Shown piece after piece: positions 1 to 14,398 of a stretch of DNA of 24,988 nt (positions are counted from its first letter, which is position 1; each line of letters opens with the position of its first letter). The DNA comes from a virus (lineage: Duplodnaviria; Caudoviricetes). Below the pieces are notes generated by a model. The model did not search any database. It was not told the DNA's origin and saw nothing but the letters and a program-made list of their open reading frames with translations. The position numbers were made by a program, and so were the translations under genes. The stretch lies in the IMG/VR virus record IMGVR_UViG_3300025084_000208, positions 1 to 24,988 of that record; one strand, given 5' to 3'.

Positions 1-968
1 TTGGAGTATAGTTTTGTTCCTTCGCCTTCGCCCGGAGCATTAGGATCAATTCCGTCTCCGATATAAGGACTTTGAGAAATAATTAAACTGTCATCTACTC
101 TTACACTGTTTGTACCAGTTGCTGCAAGAATGAGATCTTCGCCAGTATTGTTATCACCAACTTGAATAGTTGATCCTGATATAGTAACACCGTGTATTTG
201 TGTTTGTTCGGCTGTAAATACAGTAGTTAATACACCATTTGCTGTTAAATGAACTTCGCCTCGACCGTCTGGATCTGGGCCTGGTTCAATTACTTCTACG
301 TTTGATATACCTTTTTCTATTTTATAACTAAATGTCGAAGAAATCTTTGCGTCAACAAAATCTACTACTGCTTTAGCATTTGGAATAACGTCATCAGTAT
401 TTTCAGTAAGCAAAATTGGTGTTGTTTGTGTTACTCTTGCTGCGCCATATGACGAATCTAATGAGCCGTTAATATAAGCAAATACTCCAGTTTCGTAAGA
501 GTTAGTACCTTTTACTAATACTCTACCACTACCGCCACCGACTAAGTTTAAATCGTCGCCGTCTGAATCAATATCGTATGTTCTTATTCCTAATACTCTT
601 GTTGGGTTATTTGTATATCTGGCAACAAAAAGACCATCTGAGTTATTACTACCTAATCTTGATTCGTACCAATTACCTATATTTTCTGCATATACCCATT
701 CAACGTCACCGGTAGTTGCACTTCCTCTGTCTACTTGTATTCCAGAAAATCCTGCAGATACTTCTGTAGCAGTTTCATTTCTGTTTAAAATAATTACGTT
801 ATCTTCAATTTCTAAATTTACTGTGTCAATAGTTGTTTGACTACCAGTAACATTCAAGTCACCAAGAATGTTAACTGTACCAGATCCCGTATCTAACGTA
901 ATCTCCTGGCCAGAGTCAACTTTTATTTTATAGTCTCCGCCGCCGGTAATTTTTAGAAATTTTGACAT
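1..968 (-). CDS. Putative virion structural protein (tail/fibre-associated type), runs off the left edge; missing from the ORF track
   Basis: ATG at 968 preceded by AGGAT. Hand translation gives MSKFLKITGGGDYKIKVDSGQEITLDTGSGTVNILGDLNVTGSQTTIDTVNLEIEDNVIILNRNE...GFSGIQVDRGS. G/T/S/N-rich beta-type composition, downstream of the head genes. Function is inference. Confidence 0.7.
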   Translation of the reverse strand, partial: MSKFLKITGGGDYKIKVDSGQEITLDTGSGTVNILGDLNVTGSQTTIDTVNLEIEDNVIILNRNETATEVSAGFSGIQVDRGSATTGDVEWVYAENIGNWYESRLGSNNSDGLFVARYTNNPTRVLGIRTYDIDSDGDDLNLVGGGSGRVLVKGTNSYETGVFAYINGSLDSSYGAARVTQTTPILLTENTDDVIPNAKAVVDFVDAKISSTFSYKIEKGISNVEVIEPGPDPDGRGEVHLTANGVLTTVFTAEQTQIHGVTISGSTIQVGDNNTGEDLILAATGTNSVRVDDSLIISQSPYIGDGIDPNAPGEGEGTKLYS

Positions 969-981
969 TTTTTATCCTATG

Positions 982-1008
982 TAAAATAGGGGGAAGTTAC
1001 TCCCCCTA
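982..1008 (-). terminator. Intrinsic terminator after the 134-aa gene
   Basis: Minus strand TAGGGGGA-GTAACT-TCCCCCTA (8-bp stem, 987-1008) followed by TTTT. Confidence 0.75.
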
Positions 1009-1016
1009 ATCTATTC

Positions 1017-1421
1017 TTAGTCAGCTTCGAAATCGTCTGCGCCAGTGAAGTCATCAGCTGTACCAGCTTCTTCAATTTCAACTTTAGCATCGTCTACTGC
1101 ATCATCAAACGACCAAGCAATCTTTGTGCCTGAGTCAAGTGTTACCATACGTCCTGCAATTTTAACTACTTGACGAGCTGTTCCGCCATCGTCTTTAACT
1201 GTAATAGTCATATCGCCTACTGCTAAAGTACCTTGTGCTTTATCAACTAAAGTACAATCCATTGTGTTAGTACCATCGTAGCAACGGAACTTCTTAGATC
1301 CTAATTGCTTTACAATCCAGCCGTTTGCTTCTGCTTCGCCTGTAGCACGATAACGTACTTTGATTTCGTTGCCACCTGCTGTAGGCTCTCCGAAAAATCT
1401 TTTATTAATTGGTCTTCCCAT
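1017..1421 (-). CDS. Hypothetical late/virion protein, 134 aa (MGRPINKRFFG...)
   Basis: Strong SD (TAGGAGAAAACAAATG), upstream late-promoter-like GATAAATA, own terminator, acidic C-terminus. Confidence 0.8.
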   Translation of the reverse strand: MGRPINKRFFGEPTAGGNEIKVRYRATGEAEANGWIVKQLGSKKFRCYDGTNTMDCTLVDKAQGTLAVGDMTITVKDDGGTARQVVKIAGRMVTLDSGTKIAWSFDDAVDDAKVEIEEAGTADDFTGADDFEAD

Positions 1422-1435
1422 TTGTTTTCTCCTAT

Positions 1436-1512
1436 TTAAGTAGTCCTATGCCCGTTCTATGGGCTACGCTGTGGGTACAGCATAAGTCTGCTTTGCAGCA
1501 CACTATCTGACA
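1436..1512 (-). promoter_or_regulatory. Structured 5' leader (three adjacent hairpins) of the 134-aa gene
   Basis: Minus strand: CTGC-AAA-GCAG (1488-1498), TATGCTGT-ACCC-ACAGCGTA (1465-1484, one G-U) and GCCC-ATAGAAC-GGGC (1450-1464). GC-rich in an AT-rich genome, between the promoter motif and the SD. Confidence 0.55.
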
Positions 1513-1516
1513 CAAG

Positions 1517-1524
1517 TATTTATC
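1517..1524 (-). promoter_or_regulatory. T4-type late promoter variant (GATAAATA)
   Basis: 7/8 match to the gp55 consensus TATAAATA, just after a terminator and upstream of a late-type gene. Confidence 0.6.
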
Positions 1525-1536
1525 AAAGGTTTAAGA

Positions 1537-1576
1537 GAAAAGAAAAAAGGCCTACCGCATTAGTGGGTAGACCTTT
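1537..1576 (-). terminator. Intrinsic terminator closing the non-coding unit
   Basis: Minus strand AAAGGTCTACC-CACTAATGC-GGTAGGCCTTT (11 bp with one G-U) continuing as TTTCTTTT. Confidence 0.85.
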
Positions 1577-1790
1577 AATAATAAAGTGATAGGTTGGACT
1601 CTGTGAATACCAACAATCCTTCTGTAGAGCCACGCTCAAATCCAGAAACTTCATATTAAACAGTTACGTTTAAAAATACAACTTCGTATCTCTACGCTCT
1701 TGCATTGCCACCACAGCTATGAATCAAGTTACGACCTCTACGGATCGCCATTCCTTGCACTATCTAACTTAGGATATCTCCTAACTTATG
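1540..1790 (-). ncRNA. Candidate stand-alone ~250 nt non-coding RNA, family unknown
   Basis: Bounded by a near-consensus sigma70 promoter and a strong terminator, with no SD-led ORF. Hairpins TTAGGA-GATA-TCCTAA, CGATC-CGTAGA-GGTCG, TTAAAC-GTAACT-GTTTAA and GTTGG...CCAAC; possible 5'/3' closure GATAG/CTATC. Confidence 0.6.
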
Positions 1791-1795
1791 TATTA

Positions 1796-1824
1796 ACTAT
1801 AGCAGATAATAAATATAATGTCAA
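1796..1824 (-). promoter_or_regulatory. Sigma70-type (early) promoter
   Basis: TTGACA (1824-1819), 17-nt spacer ending TGC (extended -10), TATAGT (1801-1796). Confidence 0.8.
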
Positions 1825-1851
1825 CCACTTTTTATAAAAAAGGAGAAAAAA

Positions 1852-2034
1852 ATGCGGTTTAAAATTATTACATGGGCCGATGTATCAATCGATGACGGCA
1901 GATACGGGTTAACTGATCATCCTGTAAAAGACACTGTTTCTAATGAAGTAAGACTTTGGCACTCAGGACAACAAAGAGTACGATCAACAGATATTACAAT
2001 TGAAGAATTTAATACTTGGGAAAAGATAAATTAA
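1852..2034 (+). CDS. Small hypothetical protein, 60 aa, oriented against the late genes
   Basis: Strong SD AAGGAG followed by an A-run and ATG; ends at a bidirectional terminator; TATAAT at 1814-1819 upstream. Confidence 0.6.
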   Translation: MRFKIITWADVSIDDGRYGLTDHPVKDTVSNEVRLWHSGQQRVRSTDITIEEFNTWEKIN

Positions 2035-2040
2035 GTCGTA

Positions 2041-2066
2041 AAAAAAGGCGCCGTAGCGCCTTTTTT
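2041..2066. terminator. Bidirectional intrinsic terminator between gp23 and the 60-aa ORF
   Basis: AAAAAA-GGCGC-CGTA-GCGCC-TTTTTT: GC stem with a U-run on each strand, between convergent genes. Confidence 0.9.
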
Positions 2067-2082
2067 ATTAAACAGTTATAAC

Positions 2083-3249
2083 TTAGCTGAATGTTACTGC
2101 GCTGTTGGTAATTCCAACTTTGCCTAAGTAATCAGCTGCATTGCCTAGAGACGATGCTGTGTTTGATAACTCAACATATCCGTAACGTGTCATGAAGCTC
2201 ACAACTGGTTCGAATGATGTTGGATCAAGTACAACTCCTGAGCTCATTAGTGGGATGTATGGGCAATAGAATGCCGCTGCATCTGATTCACTTGAGCCTT
2301 TATAGCCAACTAGTACTGCTGAACTATCTGCTGCATATGTGTTTACATATACTTTCATAGCGTTGTTCAATGTACCAACCATTTTAGTGTTAGTTGGTGC
2401 TTCAAACGAACCTTCAGTTGTACGAGCAAACGCACTTGTAGTTGCAGACTGTAGGATTGTAAGTGCTAATGGACTTACAACTGCCCAGTTACCTGCGCCA
2501 CGTCTTGTGCGCTGTGCAATGATATTTGCAACACGGTTGATTTGAACAGCTAATGCAGCATGTTCGTCACCAACGAATGTAGCAGTACCACTTACTGCAG
2601 ATTGGTCATATGTTTCAATGTTGTTGCCTGCAAGCGAATCTAAACTTGATAGAATCTCTTGGTCAATCTCAGCAGTAATCTCTTGTGCAAGAGCTGCCAT
2701 GATTTCTGCTTCAACATCGATGCCGTGCATAGACTGTGCATCTTGAGCTGCTTCGAATGTCCAGCGAGCTGATAGCTTGCGTGACTTTGCTTCCACAGTT
2801 TGTTTCAAGATTTGGATTGACATTCTGTTTCCAGCTGTGCCTTCCATTGCTGCTGTTGCACTTGGAGCATCGTTAGTACCGGCTGCTCCTGAGTATGATT
2901 CAGCGATTTTGAATGGGCTTAGAGCCTCTTCACCTGCCGCTGCGCCGTTGTCTCCATCAGCATAACGTACTCTTAGTGTGTGGATCTGACCCACTGGACC
3001 TGTCATCGGCTGTACGCCAACAAGTTCATTTGCAATTACTGTCGGCATTACACGACGAATAACTGGAAGAATAACACGATTAAGTGTCGCAACATTACCG
3101 GCGGAAGTTGCACCAGCGGTGGCTGATTCTGACAAATACGAACGTGTATTTTCCAGTGTAGCTGCCATTACGCTTTTCTTATTGCCCTGAAGGCCTTCAA
3201 GAAGTGCAGTTTTTGTCTCCTGCCAGCGACTTTCTAGTAGTTCTGACAT
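2083..3249 (-). CDS. gp23: Major capsid protein, T4 gp23 family
   Basis: Motifs VIRRVMP..IA.ELVGVQPMTGPVGQIHTLRVRY, VEAKSRKLSARWTFEAAQD..HGIDVEAE..AL..EI.AEID.EI, YCPYIPL and SFEPVVSFMTRYG; SD AGGAG. Confidence 0.97.
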   Translation of the reverse strand: MSELLESRWQETKTALLEGLQGNKKSVMAATLENTRSYLSESATAGATSAGNVATLNRVILPVIRRVMPTVIANELVGVQPMTGPVGQIHTLRVRYADGDNGAAAGEEALSPFKIAESYSGAAGTNDAPSATAAMEGTAGNRMSIQILKQTVEAKSRKLSARWTFEAAQDAQSMHGIDVEAEIMAALAQEITAEIDQEILSSLDSLAGNNIETYDQSAVSGTATFVGDEHAALAVQINRVANIIAQRTRRGAGNWAVVSPLALTILQSATTSAFARTTEGSFEAPTNTKMVGTLNNAMKVYVNTYAADSSAVLVGYKGSSESDAAAFYCPYIPLMSSGVVLDPTSFEPVVSFMTRYGYVELSNTASSLGNAADYLGKVGITNSAVTFS

Positions 3250-3261
3250 TGGTTTCTCCTC

Positions 3262-4359
3262 TTAAATTCCAGCTAGACGACGAATGTCTAATACATTACC
3301 ATCATCTGCTTTATTACTAATATCATTTTTTGTTTCTCTATTGCCTGTTATTTGTGTGCCTTCTGTAATTTTAGCCTTTTGCTTTGTCGAGGTTCTCTTA
3401 CCATCTATTACCGCCGGTAAGTACTTGTCAAAAGCTTCATTTAGTTTTGATGTTTTCACTGTTTCTAGTAAATCCATCATAATGTCTTTCTGACTCGCTG
3501 ATAGCGGACCAGTTAGCTCATTTAGTCTGTCTTTTCTTTGTGCAGTTTCAACTATAGTAGCAATCTCTTTTTCTTTGGATTCAACTATCTTAGCAGATTC
3601 AGCTGCTGCTGTTTTTGCTTCTGATAATTGAGCGTCTTTAACATCAATTACTTTCATTAGTTTTGCAGTTTCGCTCTTCTCATTTAAATGTGAAGTGCTA
3701 TACTCTGATGCAAATGCTTCAAATAATTTACGTCCGAAGTCGTTTTTACGTGCTTCGTCAATATCTTCTTTTAGCTGACTAATTTCAGACGAAAGTGTTT
3801 TACTTACTGTTTTTTCAACAAGTGACGCACTCTTCGTAATAAATGCTGTTTTGACCTTTTCAAAGTGTGATTTTGCTTCTCTAATTAAACGCACTTTAGT
3901 TTCTGCAAGATCTTTCTTGTCAGAATGGAACTCTGCAATTTCTTTTGCTAGTGCTTCAACTACAAATTCTTGTAGTTTACCGAAGTTTTCTGCAATATTC
4001 TTTTGATCATCATGTAGTTCTTTCACTTCGTTAGATAGTGACTCCACTACAAAGTTTTTCATAAGATCTGCGTTTTCACGCATTGCAACTGCATATTTTG
4101 CTTTTGCTTCTGCTAGTTGTTTACGGTCTTCTACGAATTCCTCAACTTCTGCGCTTAGTCTTTCTTCAAGCATTTGATCAATAGATTCGATCATAACAGA
4201 TTTGTCATGCTCGTACTTTTGTGCAAATTCTTCACGCAGTTCAGCAGTAGCAGCAAGGCGATTTTCTTTCACCCTGGCATTCCATGCTTCTTCGATTTGT
4301 GCTCTAACTTCTTCGTTAACTACATCGTTTTCAAATAGTGTTTTTAGTGCATCAATCAT
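3262..4359 (-). CDS. gp22: Prohead core scaffolding protein, gp22-like
   Basis: E/K/A-rich coiled-coil located between protease and capsid genes, as in the T4 21-22-23 order; SD AGGAG. Confidence 0.85.
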   Translation of the reverse strand: MIDALKTLFENDVVNEEVRAQIEEAWNARVKENRLAATAELREEFAQKYEHDKSVMIESIDQMLEERLSAEVEEFVEDRKQLAEAKAKYAVAMRENADLMKNFVVESLSNEVKELHDDQKNIAENFGKLQEFVVEALAKEIAEFHSDKKDLAETKVRLIREAKSHFEKVKTAFITKSASLVEKTVSKTLSSEISQLKEDIDEARKNDFGRKLFEAFASEYSTSHLNEKSETAKLMKVIDVKDAQLSEAKTAAAESAKIVESKEKEIATIVETAQRKDRLNELTGPLSASQKDIMMDLLETVKTSKLNEAFDKYLPAVIDGKRTSTKQKAKITEGTQITGNRETKNDISNKADDGNVLDIRRLAGI

Positions 4360-4372
4360 TACCTTCTCCTGG

Positions 4373-4996
4373 TTATTGGAGCTTGTTGATTATATTAATC
4401 AACGATTCCTTTAGATACTTTTGTGCCTTTGTGTCTTCTTTAGTTGCCTGTGCTAGTTCGTATGCCTTCATACCACCACGAGCGTTCATTAGATGTTCGT
4501 AGATTGGTGTAGGGTAAGCGCCGGGCGCACTTGGTTGCGCCACAACGTCGACTGTTATAATTTCAAAATCTGAGACGGTATTACTGCCGTCTTCTGATAC
4601 ATTACCAGAGCCCCTACTGGAAACACCTAGTTTAACTCCGCTTTCCAACATCGTCTTTACTAGTTGTCCCATAGGGGTTGGTAAAATTTTTAATTTTCCG
4701 TAACCGTTATTGTCATCCATCCAGCATTCACTGATCATATGACTCACGCGGTCTAGGTTAATGTTTAGTCCTTCAGGATGATCAACTTCTCCGAGAACAC
4801 TATATCCTCCAGTTATTTGATCATTGAGAGTTTTGACAGCCCTGCCAATTTCATTTACAGGATACACACGCTGATTAGCATTGCGCACACCGCCTTGTAT
4901 ACAAATACCCTTCATATACAAGTCTTTTCCTTCGTTGGCGTTCTCAACAACTATTTTAGCTTGATCGAATGTCAAATGCTCTCGTAAGTTTCTCAT
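4373..4996 (-). CDS. gp21: Prohead protease, T4 gp21 family
   Basis: GICIQGGVRNANQRVYP, LGEVDHP (catalytic His), LDRVSH, LGVSSRGSG (catalytic Ser), DVVAQPSAPGAYP. Confidence 0.96.
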   Translation of the reverse strand: MRNLREHLTFDQAKIVVENANEGKDLYMKGICIQGGVRNANQRVYPVNEIGRAVKTLNDQITGGYSVLGEVDHPEGLNINLDRVSHMISECWMDDNNGYGKLKILPTPMGQLVKTMLESGVKLGVSSRGSGNVSEDGSNTVSDFEIITVDVVAQPSAPGAYPTPIYEHLMNARGGMKAYELAQATKEDTKAQKYLKESLINIINKLQ

Positions 4997-5009
4997 CTAG
5001 ATTTCCTAA

Positions 5010-5960
5010 TTAAGATCCAATAGTGCTTTTTGAATTTGCACCGTTATCGCCGGATCCTTTTTTCTCAGCGCCGTGTCCTTTAGGCTGTGCCTTCATTGAC
5101 TTCGATGCTTTACCACCTGGTACATTTACGTTACCAGCTGATTCCTCTGACGTAGCTGGGTTAGCTAATCCACCGGCTGTTCCGCCTGTGTTGCTTTCTC
5201 CACCTTTTGCAATATTAGCTGCTGTTCCGCCCATATTGTTTGCGCCTGCTACTGTTGACTTGGTGTTTGCACCGTTGTCGCCCATTGTAGCTGATACTTT
5301 TTCTACATACTCACGCATTGTTTCGCCTGCTGATTTAGCTGACTCATCAGTTTCTTCTTCTGATTCGTCTACTTCTTCGTCAGTTGCTTCATCAACTTCT
5401 TCGTCAGTTGCTTCAAATGCGAATGATTCTTCTTCAGCTTCTTCGTCGTCGCCGCCCATGTCCATGTCCATGTCGCCTTCGTCTTCGTCGCCTTCGTCGT
5501 CACCCATCATTTTTTCAAATTCTGCTTTTAATTCATCTAGAGCATCTTCTAGATCAACTACACGATCTTCCATGTCGCCTTCGTCTTCGTCGCCCATATC
5601 TGCTTCGTCGCCGTCTGCTTCAATGTCGCCCATCATGTCGTCTGCTGGGTCACCGCCCATATCCATTGGGTCTGCTTCGACTTCAAACTCGTCTAGGTCA
5701 AAACCTTCGTCGACTTCTTCGTCAGTTGCTTCGTCGACTTCTTCGTCAGTTGCTTCGTCGACTTCTTCGTCAGTTGCTTCATCAACTTCTTCGTCAGTTG
5801 CTTCGTCAACTTCTTCTTCGTCTAATTCATCTTCTAAAAGATTTTCATATATTTTTCTTGATTTCTCTACTACTAGCTCGTGAAACAGACTTTCTGCTGC
5901 TGCACGGTCTTCATTAACAAGTAGCTCGAGCATTTCTTCGAACTTATTGCGGTCAGACAT
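5010..5960 (-). CDS. Extremely acidic, repeat-containing protein; likely prohead core component (position of T4 gp67/gp68)
   Basis: SD TAGGAG; D/E-rich with ATDEEVDE repeats and a G/A/N/K-rich tail; between portal and protease. Function inferred from position and composition. Confidence 0.7.
   Translation of the reverse strand: MSDRNKFEEMLELLVNEDRAAAESLFHELVVEKSRKIYENLLEDELDEEEVDEATDEEVDEATDEEVDEATDEEVDEATDEEVDEGFDLDEFEVEADPMDMGGDPADDMMGDIEADGDEADMGDEDEGDMEDRVVDLEDALDELKAEFEKMMGDDEGDEDEGDMDMDMGGDDEEAEEESFAFEATDEEVDEATDEEVDESEEETDESAKSAGETMREYVEKVSATMGDNGANTKSTVAGANNMGGTAANIAKGGESNTGGTAGGLANPATSEESAGNVNVPGGKASKSMKAQPKGHGAEKKGSGDNGANSKSTIGS
5364..5414. repeat. Second block of the 24-bp coding repeat (about 2 copies)
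   Basis: TTCGTCTACTTCTTCGTCAGTTGC then TTCATCAACTTCTTCGTCAGTTGC; encodes ATDEEVDE twice. Confidence 0.9.
5706..5816. repeat. 24-bp coding tandem repeat, about 4.6 copies
   Basis: Unit TTCGTCGACTTCTTCGTCAGTTGC three times exactly, then synonymous variants; encodes ATDEEVDE on the minus strand. Confidence 0.95.
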
Positions 5961-13719: not shown

Positions 13720-14169
13720 TTATGTGTTAGATTGTTTTGCCTGGATGTGATGTTCTAGCAATGCCTGTTTGAGTTTGTCTGATCCGCCTACTCTAACATT
13801 AATGATACCATTATAGTATTCATCAGTTTCAAGTACACGCCTATCAAACTGTTCTCTTGCCTCTATGTAGGACATTTCGCCCCTACCTTTACATAGGTAT
13901 AATATTTCTCTTGTAAACTTGTCTTCGCCTAGTGCAGCTACGTCTGCGTTTAGTCTATCACTGGATCCCCAGTAAGTACGCCAATCGCTTTCTTTAGTGC
14001 CGCGCCTTTTGTTTTTCTTGCCTTTGAGTGGTGGCTTAGTAGTTTTAAATTTTGCTAGTTTTTTGCCTATGTATTTTTGATCTGTAGTGGTATTTGTGAT
14101 AAGATAAACAAAGCCTTCGTACTCGTCTGGTATTTCGTCAATTTGTTTACCGTTATATGTCCACTGCAT
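13720..14169 (-). CDS. GIY-YIG family endonuclease, 149 aa (start corrected from 14280)
   Basis: GFVYLITN...KYIGKK (GIY-YIG hairpin), WRTYWGSS, FTREIL, E in SYIEAREQ and YYN; basic insert KFKTTKPPLKGKKNKRRGTK. The longer start overlaps the upstream gene. Confidence 0.85.
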   Translation of the reverse strand: MQWTYNGKQIDEIPDEYEGFVYLITNTTTDQKYIGKKLAKFKTTKPPLKGKKNKRRGTKESDWRTYWGSSDRLNADVAALGEDKFTREILYLCKGRGEMSYIEAREQFDRRVLETDEYYNGIINVRVGGSDKLKQALLEHHIQAKQSNT

Positions 14170-14200
14170 CAAATATATATGTATGCCTAAAGTTTTTTGC

Positions 14201-14398
14201 CTATTTTCTGGTTGTTCTTGTAGTGTTATGATGAACATGTATTTGTTCTGCACGAATCTTTGCCAATGCACGTATTTCACGTAAACATTTTCTTACTGCA
14301 CGATGTGTTCTTACACTATTTTTAGCTACAAATTTTTCGTTTGCTTTAAAATAATCAAGATATGCATTTACAAGAGAATCATGTATATCGTTAGGCAT
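14201..14398 (-). CDS. Small basic helical protein, 65 aa, possibly DNA-binding
   Basis: ATG overlaps the gp46 stop (TAATG coupling); R/K-rich amphipathic helix RAVRKCLREIRALAKIR. Confidence 0.7.
   Translation of the reverse strand: MPNDIHDSLVNAYLDYFKANEKFVAKNSVRTHRAVRKCLREIRALAKIRAEQIHVHHNTTRTTRK

Follow-up and report, generated by a model that had tools for sequence, protein, structure and literature searches.

The window, a stretch of 24,988 nucleotides from IMG/VR record IMGVR_UViG_3300025084_000208, comes from an uncultured virus and contains T4-like head genes. Its capsid protein is 70.9% identical to the counterpart in Vibrio phage 2.275.O, whose genome measures 349 kb. Completeness is estimated at 49-60% for related records of 176-210 kb, which would correspond to genomes of about 350 kb. 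The phage appears to be a giant of the marine type, a jumbo relative of Vibrio phage 2.275.O.

The RNA studied here is encoded on the minus strand behind the gp23-like capsid gene (Table 1). An earlier note, made from the bare sequence, had described it as insulated upstream by the gp23 terminator. A terminator-like hairpin is indeed present, but a divergent 60-codon ORF (1852-2034, plus strand; no Pfam or PHROG match) sits between this hairpin and the promoter of the RNA. The late-promoter motif of the ORF (1809-1815) lies on the opposite strand within the spacer of the sigma70 promoter of the RNA, so that the two promoters overlap. The late promoter that the note had placed just behind the RNA corresponds to an ATAAATA motif at 1523-1517. 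Six of the eight ATAAATA sites in the window are found at most 110 nt upstream of a gene start on the same strand, a zone that comprises ~5% of positions, and a late sigma factor is encoded in the window; the late-promoter reading is therefore reasonable. The total number of such sites in the window is not above chance (8 versus 11). Elsewhere in the window, a SegE-type GIY-YIG endonuclease gene (13720-14280, minus strand; PF19835, E 5e-35) adjoins SbcCD-like genes.

Table 1. Features of the locus (window coordinates) and glnA elements at related loci
Feature	Position	Strand	Basis or remark
Major capsid protein gene (gp23-like)	2083..3249	-	phrog_138, E 1e-100; landmark
Bidirectional terminator-like hairpin common to gp23 and the 60-codon ORF	2037..2069	.	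Directly from sequence
Divergent 60-codon ORF, no known family	1852..2034	+	Shine-Dalgarno; late-promoter motif 1809-1815
Sigma70-type promoter, extended -10; predicted start near 1789	1796..1824	-	Consensus and conservation
manA-like RNA core, helices P1-P9	1583..1789	-	Rfam RF01745 match and covariation
P1, 5′ hairpin	1769..1784	-	Fold, alignment
P2, closing helix (arms 1764-1760 and 1592-1588)	1588..1764	-	97.9% of cells paired
P3 with loop L3; kissing segment 1741-1736	1725..1757	-	Loop matching
L5 loop, partner of L7	1710..1714	-	Covariation
P6 with internal loop and GNRA tetraloop L6	1675..1706	-	GNRA in 36/38; 9/9 tested pairs with both-side changes
L7 loop, partner of L5	1661..1667	-	Loop matching, covariation
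P8; tandem kissing segment 1633-1624	1619..1648	-	4 nt matching L9, then 6 nt matching L3
P9 with loop L9; kissing core 1606-1603	1593..1614	-	Loop matching, covariation
Intrinsic-terminator-like hairpin and U tract	1537..1576	-	Sequence, folding
Late-promoter motif ATAAATA of the next gene	1517..1523	-	Upstream position; late sigma factor of the window
Freshwater-2 RNA leader (RF02980) of the next gene	1419..1502	-	72.2 bits, cut-off 49.9; separate element
glnA (RF01739)	L008:4234-4281; L019:4233-4280; L025:3972-4021; L035:4236-4282		
glnA (RF01739)	L053:4666-4713; L076:4454-4503; L079:4254-4303; L122:1276-1323		

That the RNA matches nothing known is not supported by the Rfam search proposed in the note. 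The whole manA model (RF01745, model positions 1-192) matches 1784-1583 on the minus strand with 46.5 bits (E 2e-10), below the gathering cut-off of 55.2 bits. The exclusion of a tRNA, tmRNA, RNase P or ribozyme agrees with ARAGORN and Rfam, which report none. Copies of the element were collected from 80 capsid-gene loci and 120 pattern loci, yielding 120 full copies (84 distinct) and 38 representatives at no more than 93% identity. The relatives score 30-80 bits with the Rfam model: in a first locus set two of 20 loci exceed the cut-off, in a second set 16 of 18 loci have a match and four exceed it. Six relatives at or above the cut-off are L019 (79.9 bits), L076 (58.6), L098 (58.0), L027 (56.4), L053 (55.7) and L025 (55.5). 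Conversely, a model built solely from the 38 phage copies (R1, filters off) detects both Photobacterium manA RNAs tested (85.3 and 80.9 bits) and the single cyanophage one tested, that of S-CREM1 (47.6 bits). Since matches run both ways, homology to manA is established. Two estimates, about 290 and about 360 stretches, put the number of phage contigs missed by the Rfam cut-off in the hundreds.

The RNA shares with manA the full-length match, the order of the nine helices, the L5-L7 and L8-L9 loop matches, a similar 3′ P9/P2 sequence and a marine phage setting. In contrast, its P2 reads GAUAG/CUAUC in place of GGGAG/CUCCC, the junction after P2 is AAGGAA and not of the GAAUAA type, and P6 is longer. 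These departures from the consensus letters (GGGAGUG...CUCCC, GAAUAA) occur clade-wide. Furthermore, the RNA has its own promoter and terminator where manA is placed in a 5′ UTR, and its phage is the jumbo relative described above, no known cyanophage. Given the score below the cut-off and the variant P2 and junction letters, we class the RNA as a manA variant and not as a strict member. Judged by sequence comparison, the element is a divergent relative of manA RNA and no new RNA class.

Several other matches were discarded. Weak Rfam matches (STnc40 and others) are terminator look-alikes, and manA-II (PMC11109978) is set apart by its description as a different motif, from Leptotrichia. A blastn search against 50,697 deposited phages returned chance matches at the promoter end alone, and the capsid locus of Vibrio phage 2.275.O has no model match. 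A pattern scan of bacterial and archaeal genomes, with R1 run on 80 of 120 flanked loci, gave one strong match; the Photobacterium pattern matches among the loci searched are not manA. The strong match (L249:1840-2071, minus strand) is a longer variant with 91 bits for R1 and no Rfam manA match. It lies in a dense tRNA array, ends just before a tRNA and belongs to a contig of a Marinifilum MAG. It was left out as host evidence because this is likely a binned phage contig.

The existence of a structured body of ~250 nt, proposed earlier, is borne out by folding: the region 1790-1537 has a z-score of -2.86 and none of 200 shuffles folds equally well. For the 38 copies, RNAalifold gives 42 pairs, 33 of them with changes on both sides. 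The final structure, to which P7, one P5 pair and the L5-L7 kiss were added, has 52 pairs, of which 38 show compensatory (both-side) change, and 92.1% of cells are paired. Slid partners are 34-41% paired and none of 500 shuffles reaches the observed pairing, a contrast which is inflated because the structure came from the alignment on which it was counted. All 12 helical segments tested are 76-100% paired and P1-P9 follow in manA order; the covarying nine-helix fold decides the test of structural conservation in relatives that the note had set in favour of the first reading. The end pairing of GATAG (1764-1760) and CTATC (1592-1588) is manA helix P2, with 97.9% of cells paired in the 38 rows. 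The two small ORFs seen earlier (19 codons at 1751-1692 and 43 codons at 1654-1523, minus strand) are present. They are rejected as genes, in line with the first reading: their starts are kept in 4/38 and 3/38 copies, 174 of 189 indels break the frame, and neither ORF is conserved.

The promoter is found as described, with TTGACA at 1824-1819, a 17-nt spacer containing TG, and TATAGT at 1801-1796 on the minus strand (11 of 12 consensus matches). It is the best of 13 promoter-like sites in 1-5000. This number is at chance level (12.3 expected), so that support for the promoter comes from its conservation. The pattern is kept in 38/38 representatives, compared with 88/19,000 shuffles, and in 13 of 18 unseen metagenome copies. 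The TG occurs in 31/38, and the distance from the -10 element to the 5′ ATA of the RNA is 6 nt in 37/38. At the other end, the terminator (1576-1537) consists of an 11-bp stem, including A-U pairs, and an adjacent U tract, as noted before; a simple scan did not list it, probably because the loop exceeds the 8-nt limit of that scan. A terminator-like hairpin stands behind 26/38 representatives. Where none stands directly behind (12 copies), the downstream neighbours include tRNAs, short leader ORFs and a further structured element. The RNA is likely its own transcription unit, delimited by host-type promoter and terminator motifs.

Expression records speak for a transcript in part. Contigs of close relatives, which carry no information on strand, ends or level, cover the RNA in three of five runs on record as RNA, whereas the runs X3 and X8 do not cover it; support for the predicted transcript is accordingly weak. 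Run X4 holds a 192-nt contig (depth 654) at 1587-1769, wholly within the RNA, and in run X6 a low-depth contig spans the promoter. The lack of cover at 1846-2080 is uninformative because the relatives differ there. Contig depths did not serve to rank genes. In run X2, a viral metagenome whose RNA status is a guess, deep contigs lie over manA and the freshwater-2 leader (window 1385-1780).

Beyond the helices, three loop pairs are matched within each copy: L5-L7, L8-L9 and L3-L8 (loop numbers deduced from the Rfam helix order). The variable position of L5-L7 is A-U in 22, G-C in 10, G-U in three and unpaired in three of the 38 rows. The two other pairs meet in P8, where four bases are matched to L9 and the four to six after them to L3. 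In the window this tandem consists of GUGG/UCAC (L8-L9) followed by CUCUAC/GUAGAG (L3-L8). Seven copies of type B, in which ACC/GGU recurs in several loops and makes the partners ambiguous, were excluded. The tandem rule holds in 26 of the 31 type-A representatives, compared with a mean of 2.9 and a maximum of 10 when P8 is shuffled among copies (20,000 shuffles), and the type-A tandem comprises seven L8/L9 and 15 L3/L8 sequence versions.

Since the rule had been drawn up with the data in view, it was applied unchanged to new metagenome copies. The 119 loci of this set include 100 full copies, 18 of them new at no more than 93% identity and 15 parsable as type A; the 3′ motif is missing from 10 of the 119, one of which is a full copy and nine of which have no strong model match. 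Eight of the 15 unseen copies follow the rule (shuffle mean 1.1, maximum 6). The misses (5/31 and 7/15) form one subgroup, in which L3-L8 is kept and L8-L9 is weak at best. Taken alone, L3-L8 is matched in 31/31 type-A representatives (shuffle maximum 26) and in 15/15 unseen copies, a value equalled by some shuffles (maximum 15). Three control loop pairings are at chance level (p 0.72, 0.21 and 0.23). The shuffles take no account of relatedness; a better argument is how many distinct matched versions occur. By eye, the same tandem arrangement is seen in three Photobacterium manA RNAs. The accessible text of Rivas (10.1101/2020.02.04.933952) and of Rfam 14 (PMC7779021) reports further, unnamed covarying manA pairs, and L3-L8 and L8-L9 may for this reason already stand in those supplements. 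In our alignment, the matched changes show the loop pairs as putative interfaces under selection.

A recent preprint (bioRxiv 10.64898/2026.07.01.735769) provides a structural frame for these contacts. By cryo-EM, in vitro and at about 3 mg/mL, manA RNAs form pentamers, decamers and a 60-mer cage. In the 60-mer, pentamers are held by L5-L7′ and L8-L9′ contacts; in the decamer they are joined via L6-P6′, L5-L7′ and L3-L8′. The main text of the preprint contains no covariation analysis, expression or function for manA. All four contact types of the manA_pho34_A767 decamer and the manA_A0F1 60-mer have counterparts in the window by sequence and inferred numbering, namely L5-L7, L3-L8, L8-L9 and a GNRA L6 on a long P6. 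The structures of those two RNAs are solved, whereas the window subfamily is known from its sequence alone. The manA of Photobacterium sp. SKA34, from which manA_pho34 presumably derives to go by its name, has the tandem L8 as in the window.

Taken together, the RNA is real, conserved, non-coding and probably stand-alone. Our main reading, to which we assign a probability of roughly 0.6, is a stand-alone, trans-acting manA-type RNA able to oligomerise. Host RNA polymerase would make a free transcript of about 250 nt early in infection; that the transcript is discrete and early we consider likely. Copies of the RNA would then join by loop-loop contacts into pentamers and larger closed particles. 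The chances that the contacts form between copies are slightly better than even, and from the likeness of the long GNRA-capped P6 and the tandem L8 to the Photobacterium type we predict a dome pentamer or decamer as for manA_pho34. Finally, the RNA would work in trans, offering a host factor a multivalent decoy or scaffold. Trans action in preference to a riboswitch has good odds, comparable to those of the early transcript; a protein-sequestering role is a tentative suggestion by analogy with ROOL and GOLLD. These nanocage RNAs are, according to the accessible part of their description (10.1101/2024.12.08.627333), likewise phage-borne, often near tRNAs and multimerised via kissing loops, and ROOL is reported to be abundant yet non-essential. 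In contrast to the window RNA, they are three to four times longer, and the window has no Rfam match to them.

The alternative that stands up best is a trans-acting RNA that remains monomeric. All contacts would then be intramolecular, a compact, nuclease-resistant fold would bind a protein or metabolite, and cages would form in vitro only. The covariation suits contacts within one molecule and between molecules equally well. The manA preprint deposits two manA variants as monomer models, and the loop pairs that act between copies differ among its variants. However, five of five described variants formed closed oligomers. Moreover, L5-L7′ connects different copies in both pentamers with described interfaces, and the window RNA keeps L5-L7 and the GNRA L6. 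We consider a purely monomeric RNA rather unlikely.

Control of the downstream terminator and gene in cis, by a riboswitch or an attenuator, is what was first proposed for manA: the available text of Weinberg 2010 (PMC2864571) rates it as cis-regulatory and a probable riboswitch, and the consulted part of PMC9964418 classes the S-CREM1 manA as cis-regulatory. The terminator close behind the RNA agrees with such a role, as do the IbpA/Hsp20-like genes further downstream of two copies, a type named by Weinberg 2010. Nevertheless, the terminator lies outside the fold, at least 12 nt behind it, and no expression platform overlapping or competing with the aptamer is found. A cognate anti-terminator, sought by pairing the terminator arms with their own RNA and with other copies, has no clear support. 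One arm slightly favours its own RNA (p 0.045, in one of two tests), the other has no preference (p 0.79), and the arm-RNA duplexes average -8 to -10 kcal/mol, weaker than the hairpin (-14 kcal/mol).

The surroundings also argue against cis-regulation. The RNA does not occupy the position of a 5′-UTR regulator, as it is followed by its terminator and then by a separate late-promoter motif and leader. This leader is a true freshwater-2 member (RF02980) 80 nt downstream and belongs to the next gene. Having its own late-promoter motif and leader, that gene does not fit a riboswitch label for the RNA, and its leader or Shine-Dalgarno anchor is retained in 28 loci that lack the RNA. Downstream neighbours of manA copies vary and include tRNAs; in GenBank, the S-CREM1 manA lies flush between two tRNAs. 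A riboswitch is therefore improbable at this locus. The literature searched, with most subscription papers outside it, contains no manA function and no stand-alone manA in jumbo phages.

The distribution of the RNA bears on two further alternatives. Of the 80 capsid-gene loci, 26 carry the RNA and 28 extend as far as the next anchor but lack it. The remaining 26, of which 20 were too short and six had no anchor, were excluded. The resulting presence in 26 of 54 callable loci leans high, since short contigs show presence but never absence. On the capsid tree, presence requires 16 changes, compared with a shuffled mean of 18.6 (71 of 500 shuffles are as low), and at least seven changes are forced by well-supported branches. 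The RNA behaves as an accessory gene that was repeatedly gained or lost.

As a virion-associated structural RNA, it might form a pentameric ring at the capsid vertex or portal, or a cage released with virions. The phi29 pRNA is the model for a ring RNA acting at such a position. The pentamer is the manA building block in the preprint, and the gene lies directly behind gp23 in 59 of 83 distinct copies tested, the remainder including loci too short to tell. In addition, a contig of 251 nt and depth 1685, from one viral-metagenome library that was guessed to be RNA, overlaps the RNA in part. Against this, the RNA is missing from the 28 callable loci mentioned, scattered on the capsid tree, and none of four records tested that lack it at gp23 has a copy elsewhere (records 17-60% complete). 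Furthermore, its promoter is of the host type and not late, and manA is found in tRNA arrays and in Photobacterium genomes as well. A virion function is very improbable. Lastly, a neutral passenger of an insertion hot spot at the gp23 end would agree with a presence no more clustered on the tree than in shuffles and with locus L033, where an ORF replaces manA (about 5000-5330) and just the last bases of manA remain before the terminator, but it is largely refuted and barely credible, because compensatory change in every tested helix, three tertiary contacts and a promoter at fixed distance require selection on the RNA itself.

The reading as an oligomerising trans-acting RNA invites a bolder and, in our view, unlikely extension. 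Marine jumbo phages would make an abundant RNA-only particle in infection, and the tandem L8 would serve as a lineage self-recognition code: through its matched loop pair, each RNA would join exclusively with RNAs of its own lineage, giving pentamers or cages. These particles would sequester a factor of host defence or stress, or transport cargo. The matched loop versions underlying the proposed code number seven for L8/L9 and 15-16 for L3/L8. If true, this would give a biological role to a natural RNA-only closed particle and offer ready-made orthogonal assembly codes. Since 2010 manA has had the status of an orphan riboswitch candidate, and the cages of the 2026 preprint came without biology. 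The present clade extends the family beyond the Rfam cut-off, and its context argues against a riboswitch for manA. Its value would be that of a test bed for manA cages in cells, where natural lock-and-key variants ease mix-and-rescue testing of contacts between copies.

The neighbourhoods of other manA copies hold further elements. A conserved element of ~100 nt lies directly behind manA in L117 (1220-1334, minus strand) and, by eye, in L135, L147, L186 and L197. Its long closing stem encloses three short complementary pairs that cross in the manner of a pseudoknot, and its Rfam matches are chance matches of hairpin type only. Behind it, L135 and L147 carry a 65-codon ORF and a gene that we take, from its N-terminal sequence, to be IbpA/Hsp20-like. 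In L098 and L158, a 19-20-codon ORF with a WPP..WG motif and a Shine-Dalgarno sequence lies behind manA and precedes tRNA genes; it could encode a leader peptide, and L172 has by eye a similar sequence. At the loci given in Table 1, the interval from gp23 to the RNA contains a glutamine riboswitch (glnA, RF01739) that scores above its cut-off and lies 140-300 nt upstream of manA. Two more shared elements, one in L037 and L107 and one in L414 and L432, are found behind copies with no terminator directly behind manA and are possibly other structured RNAs.
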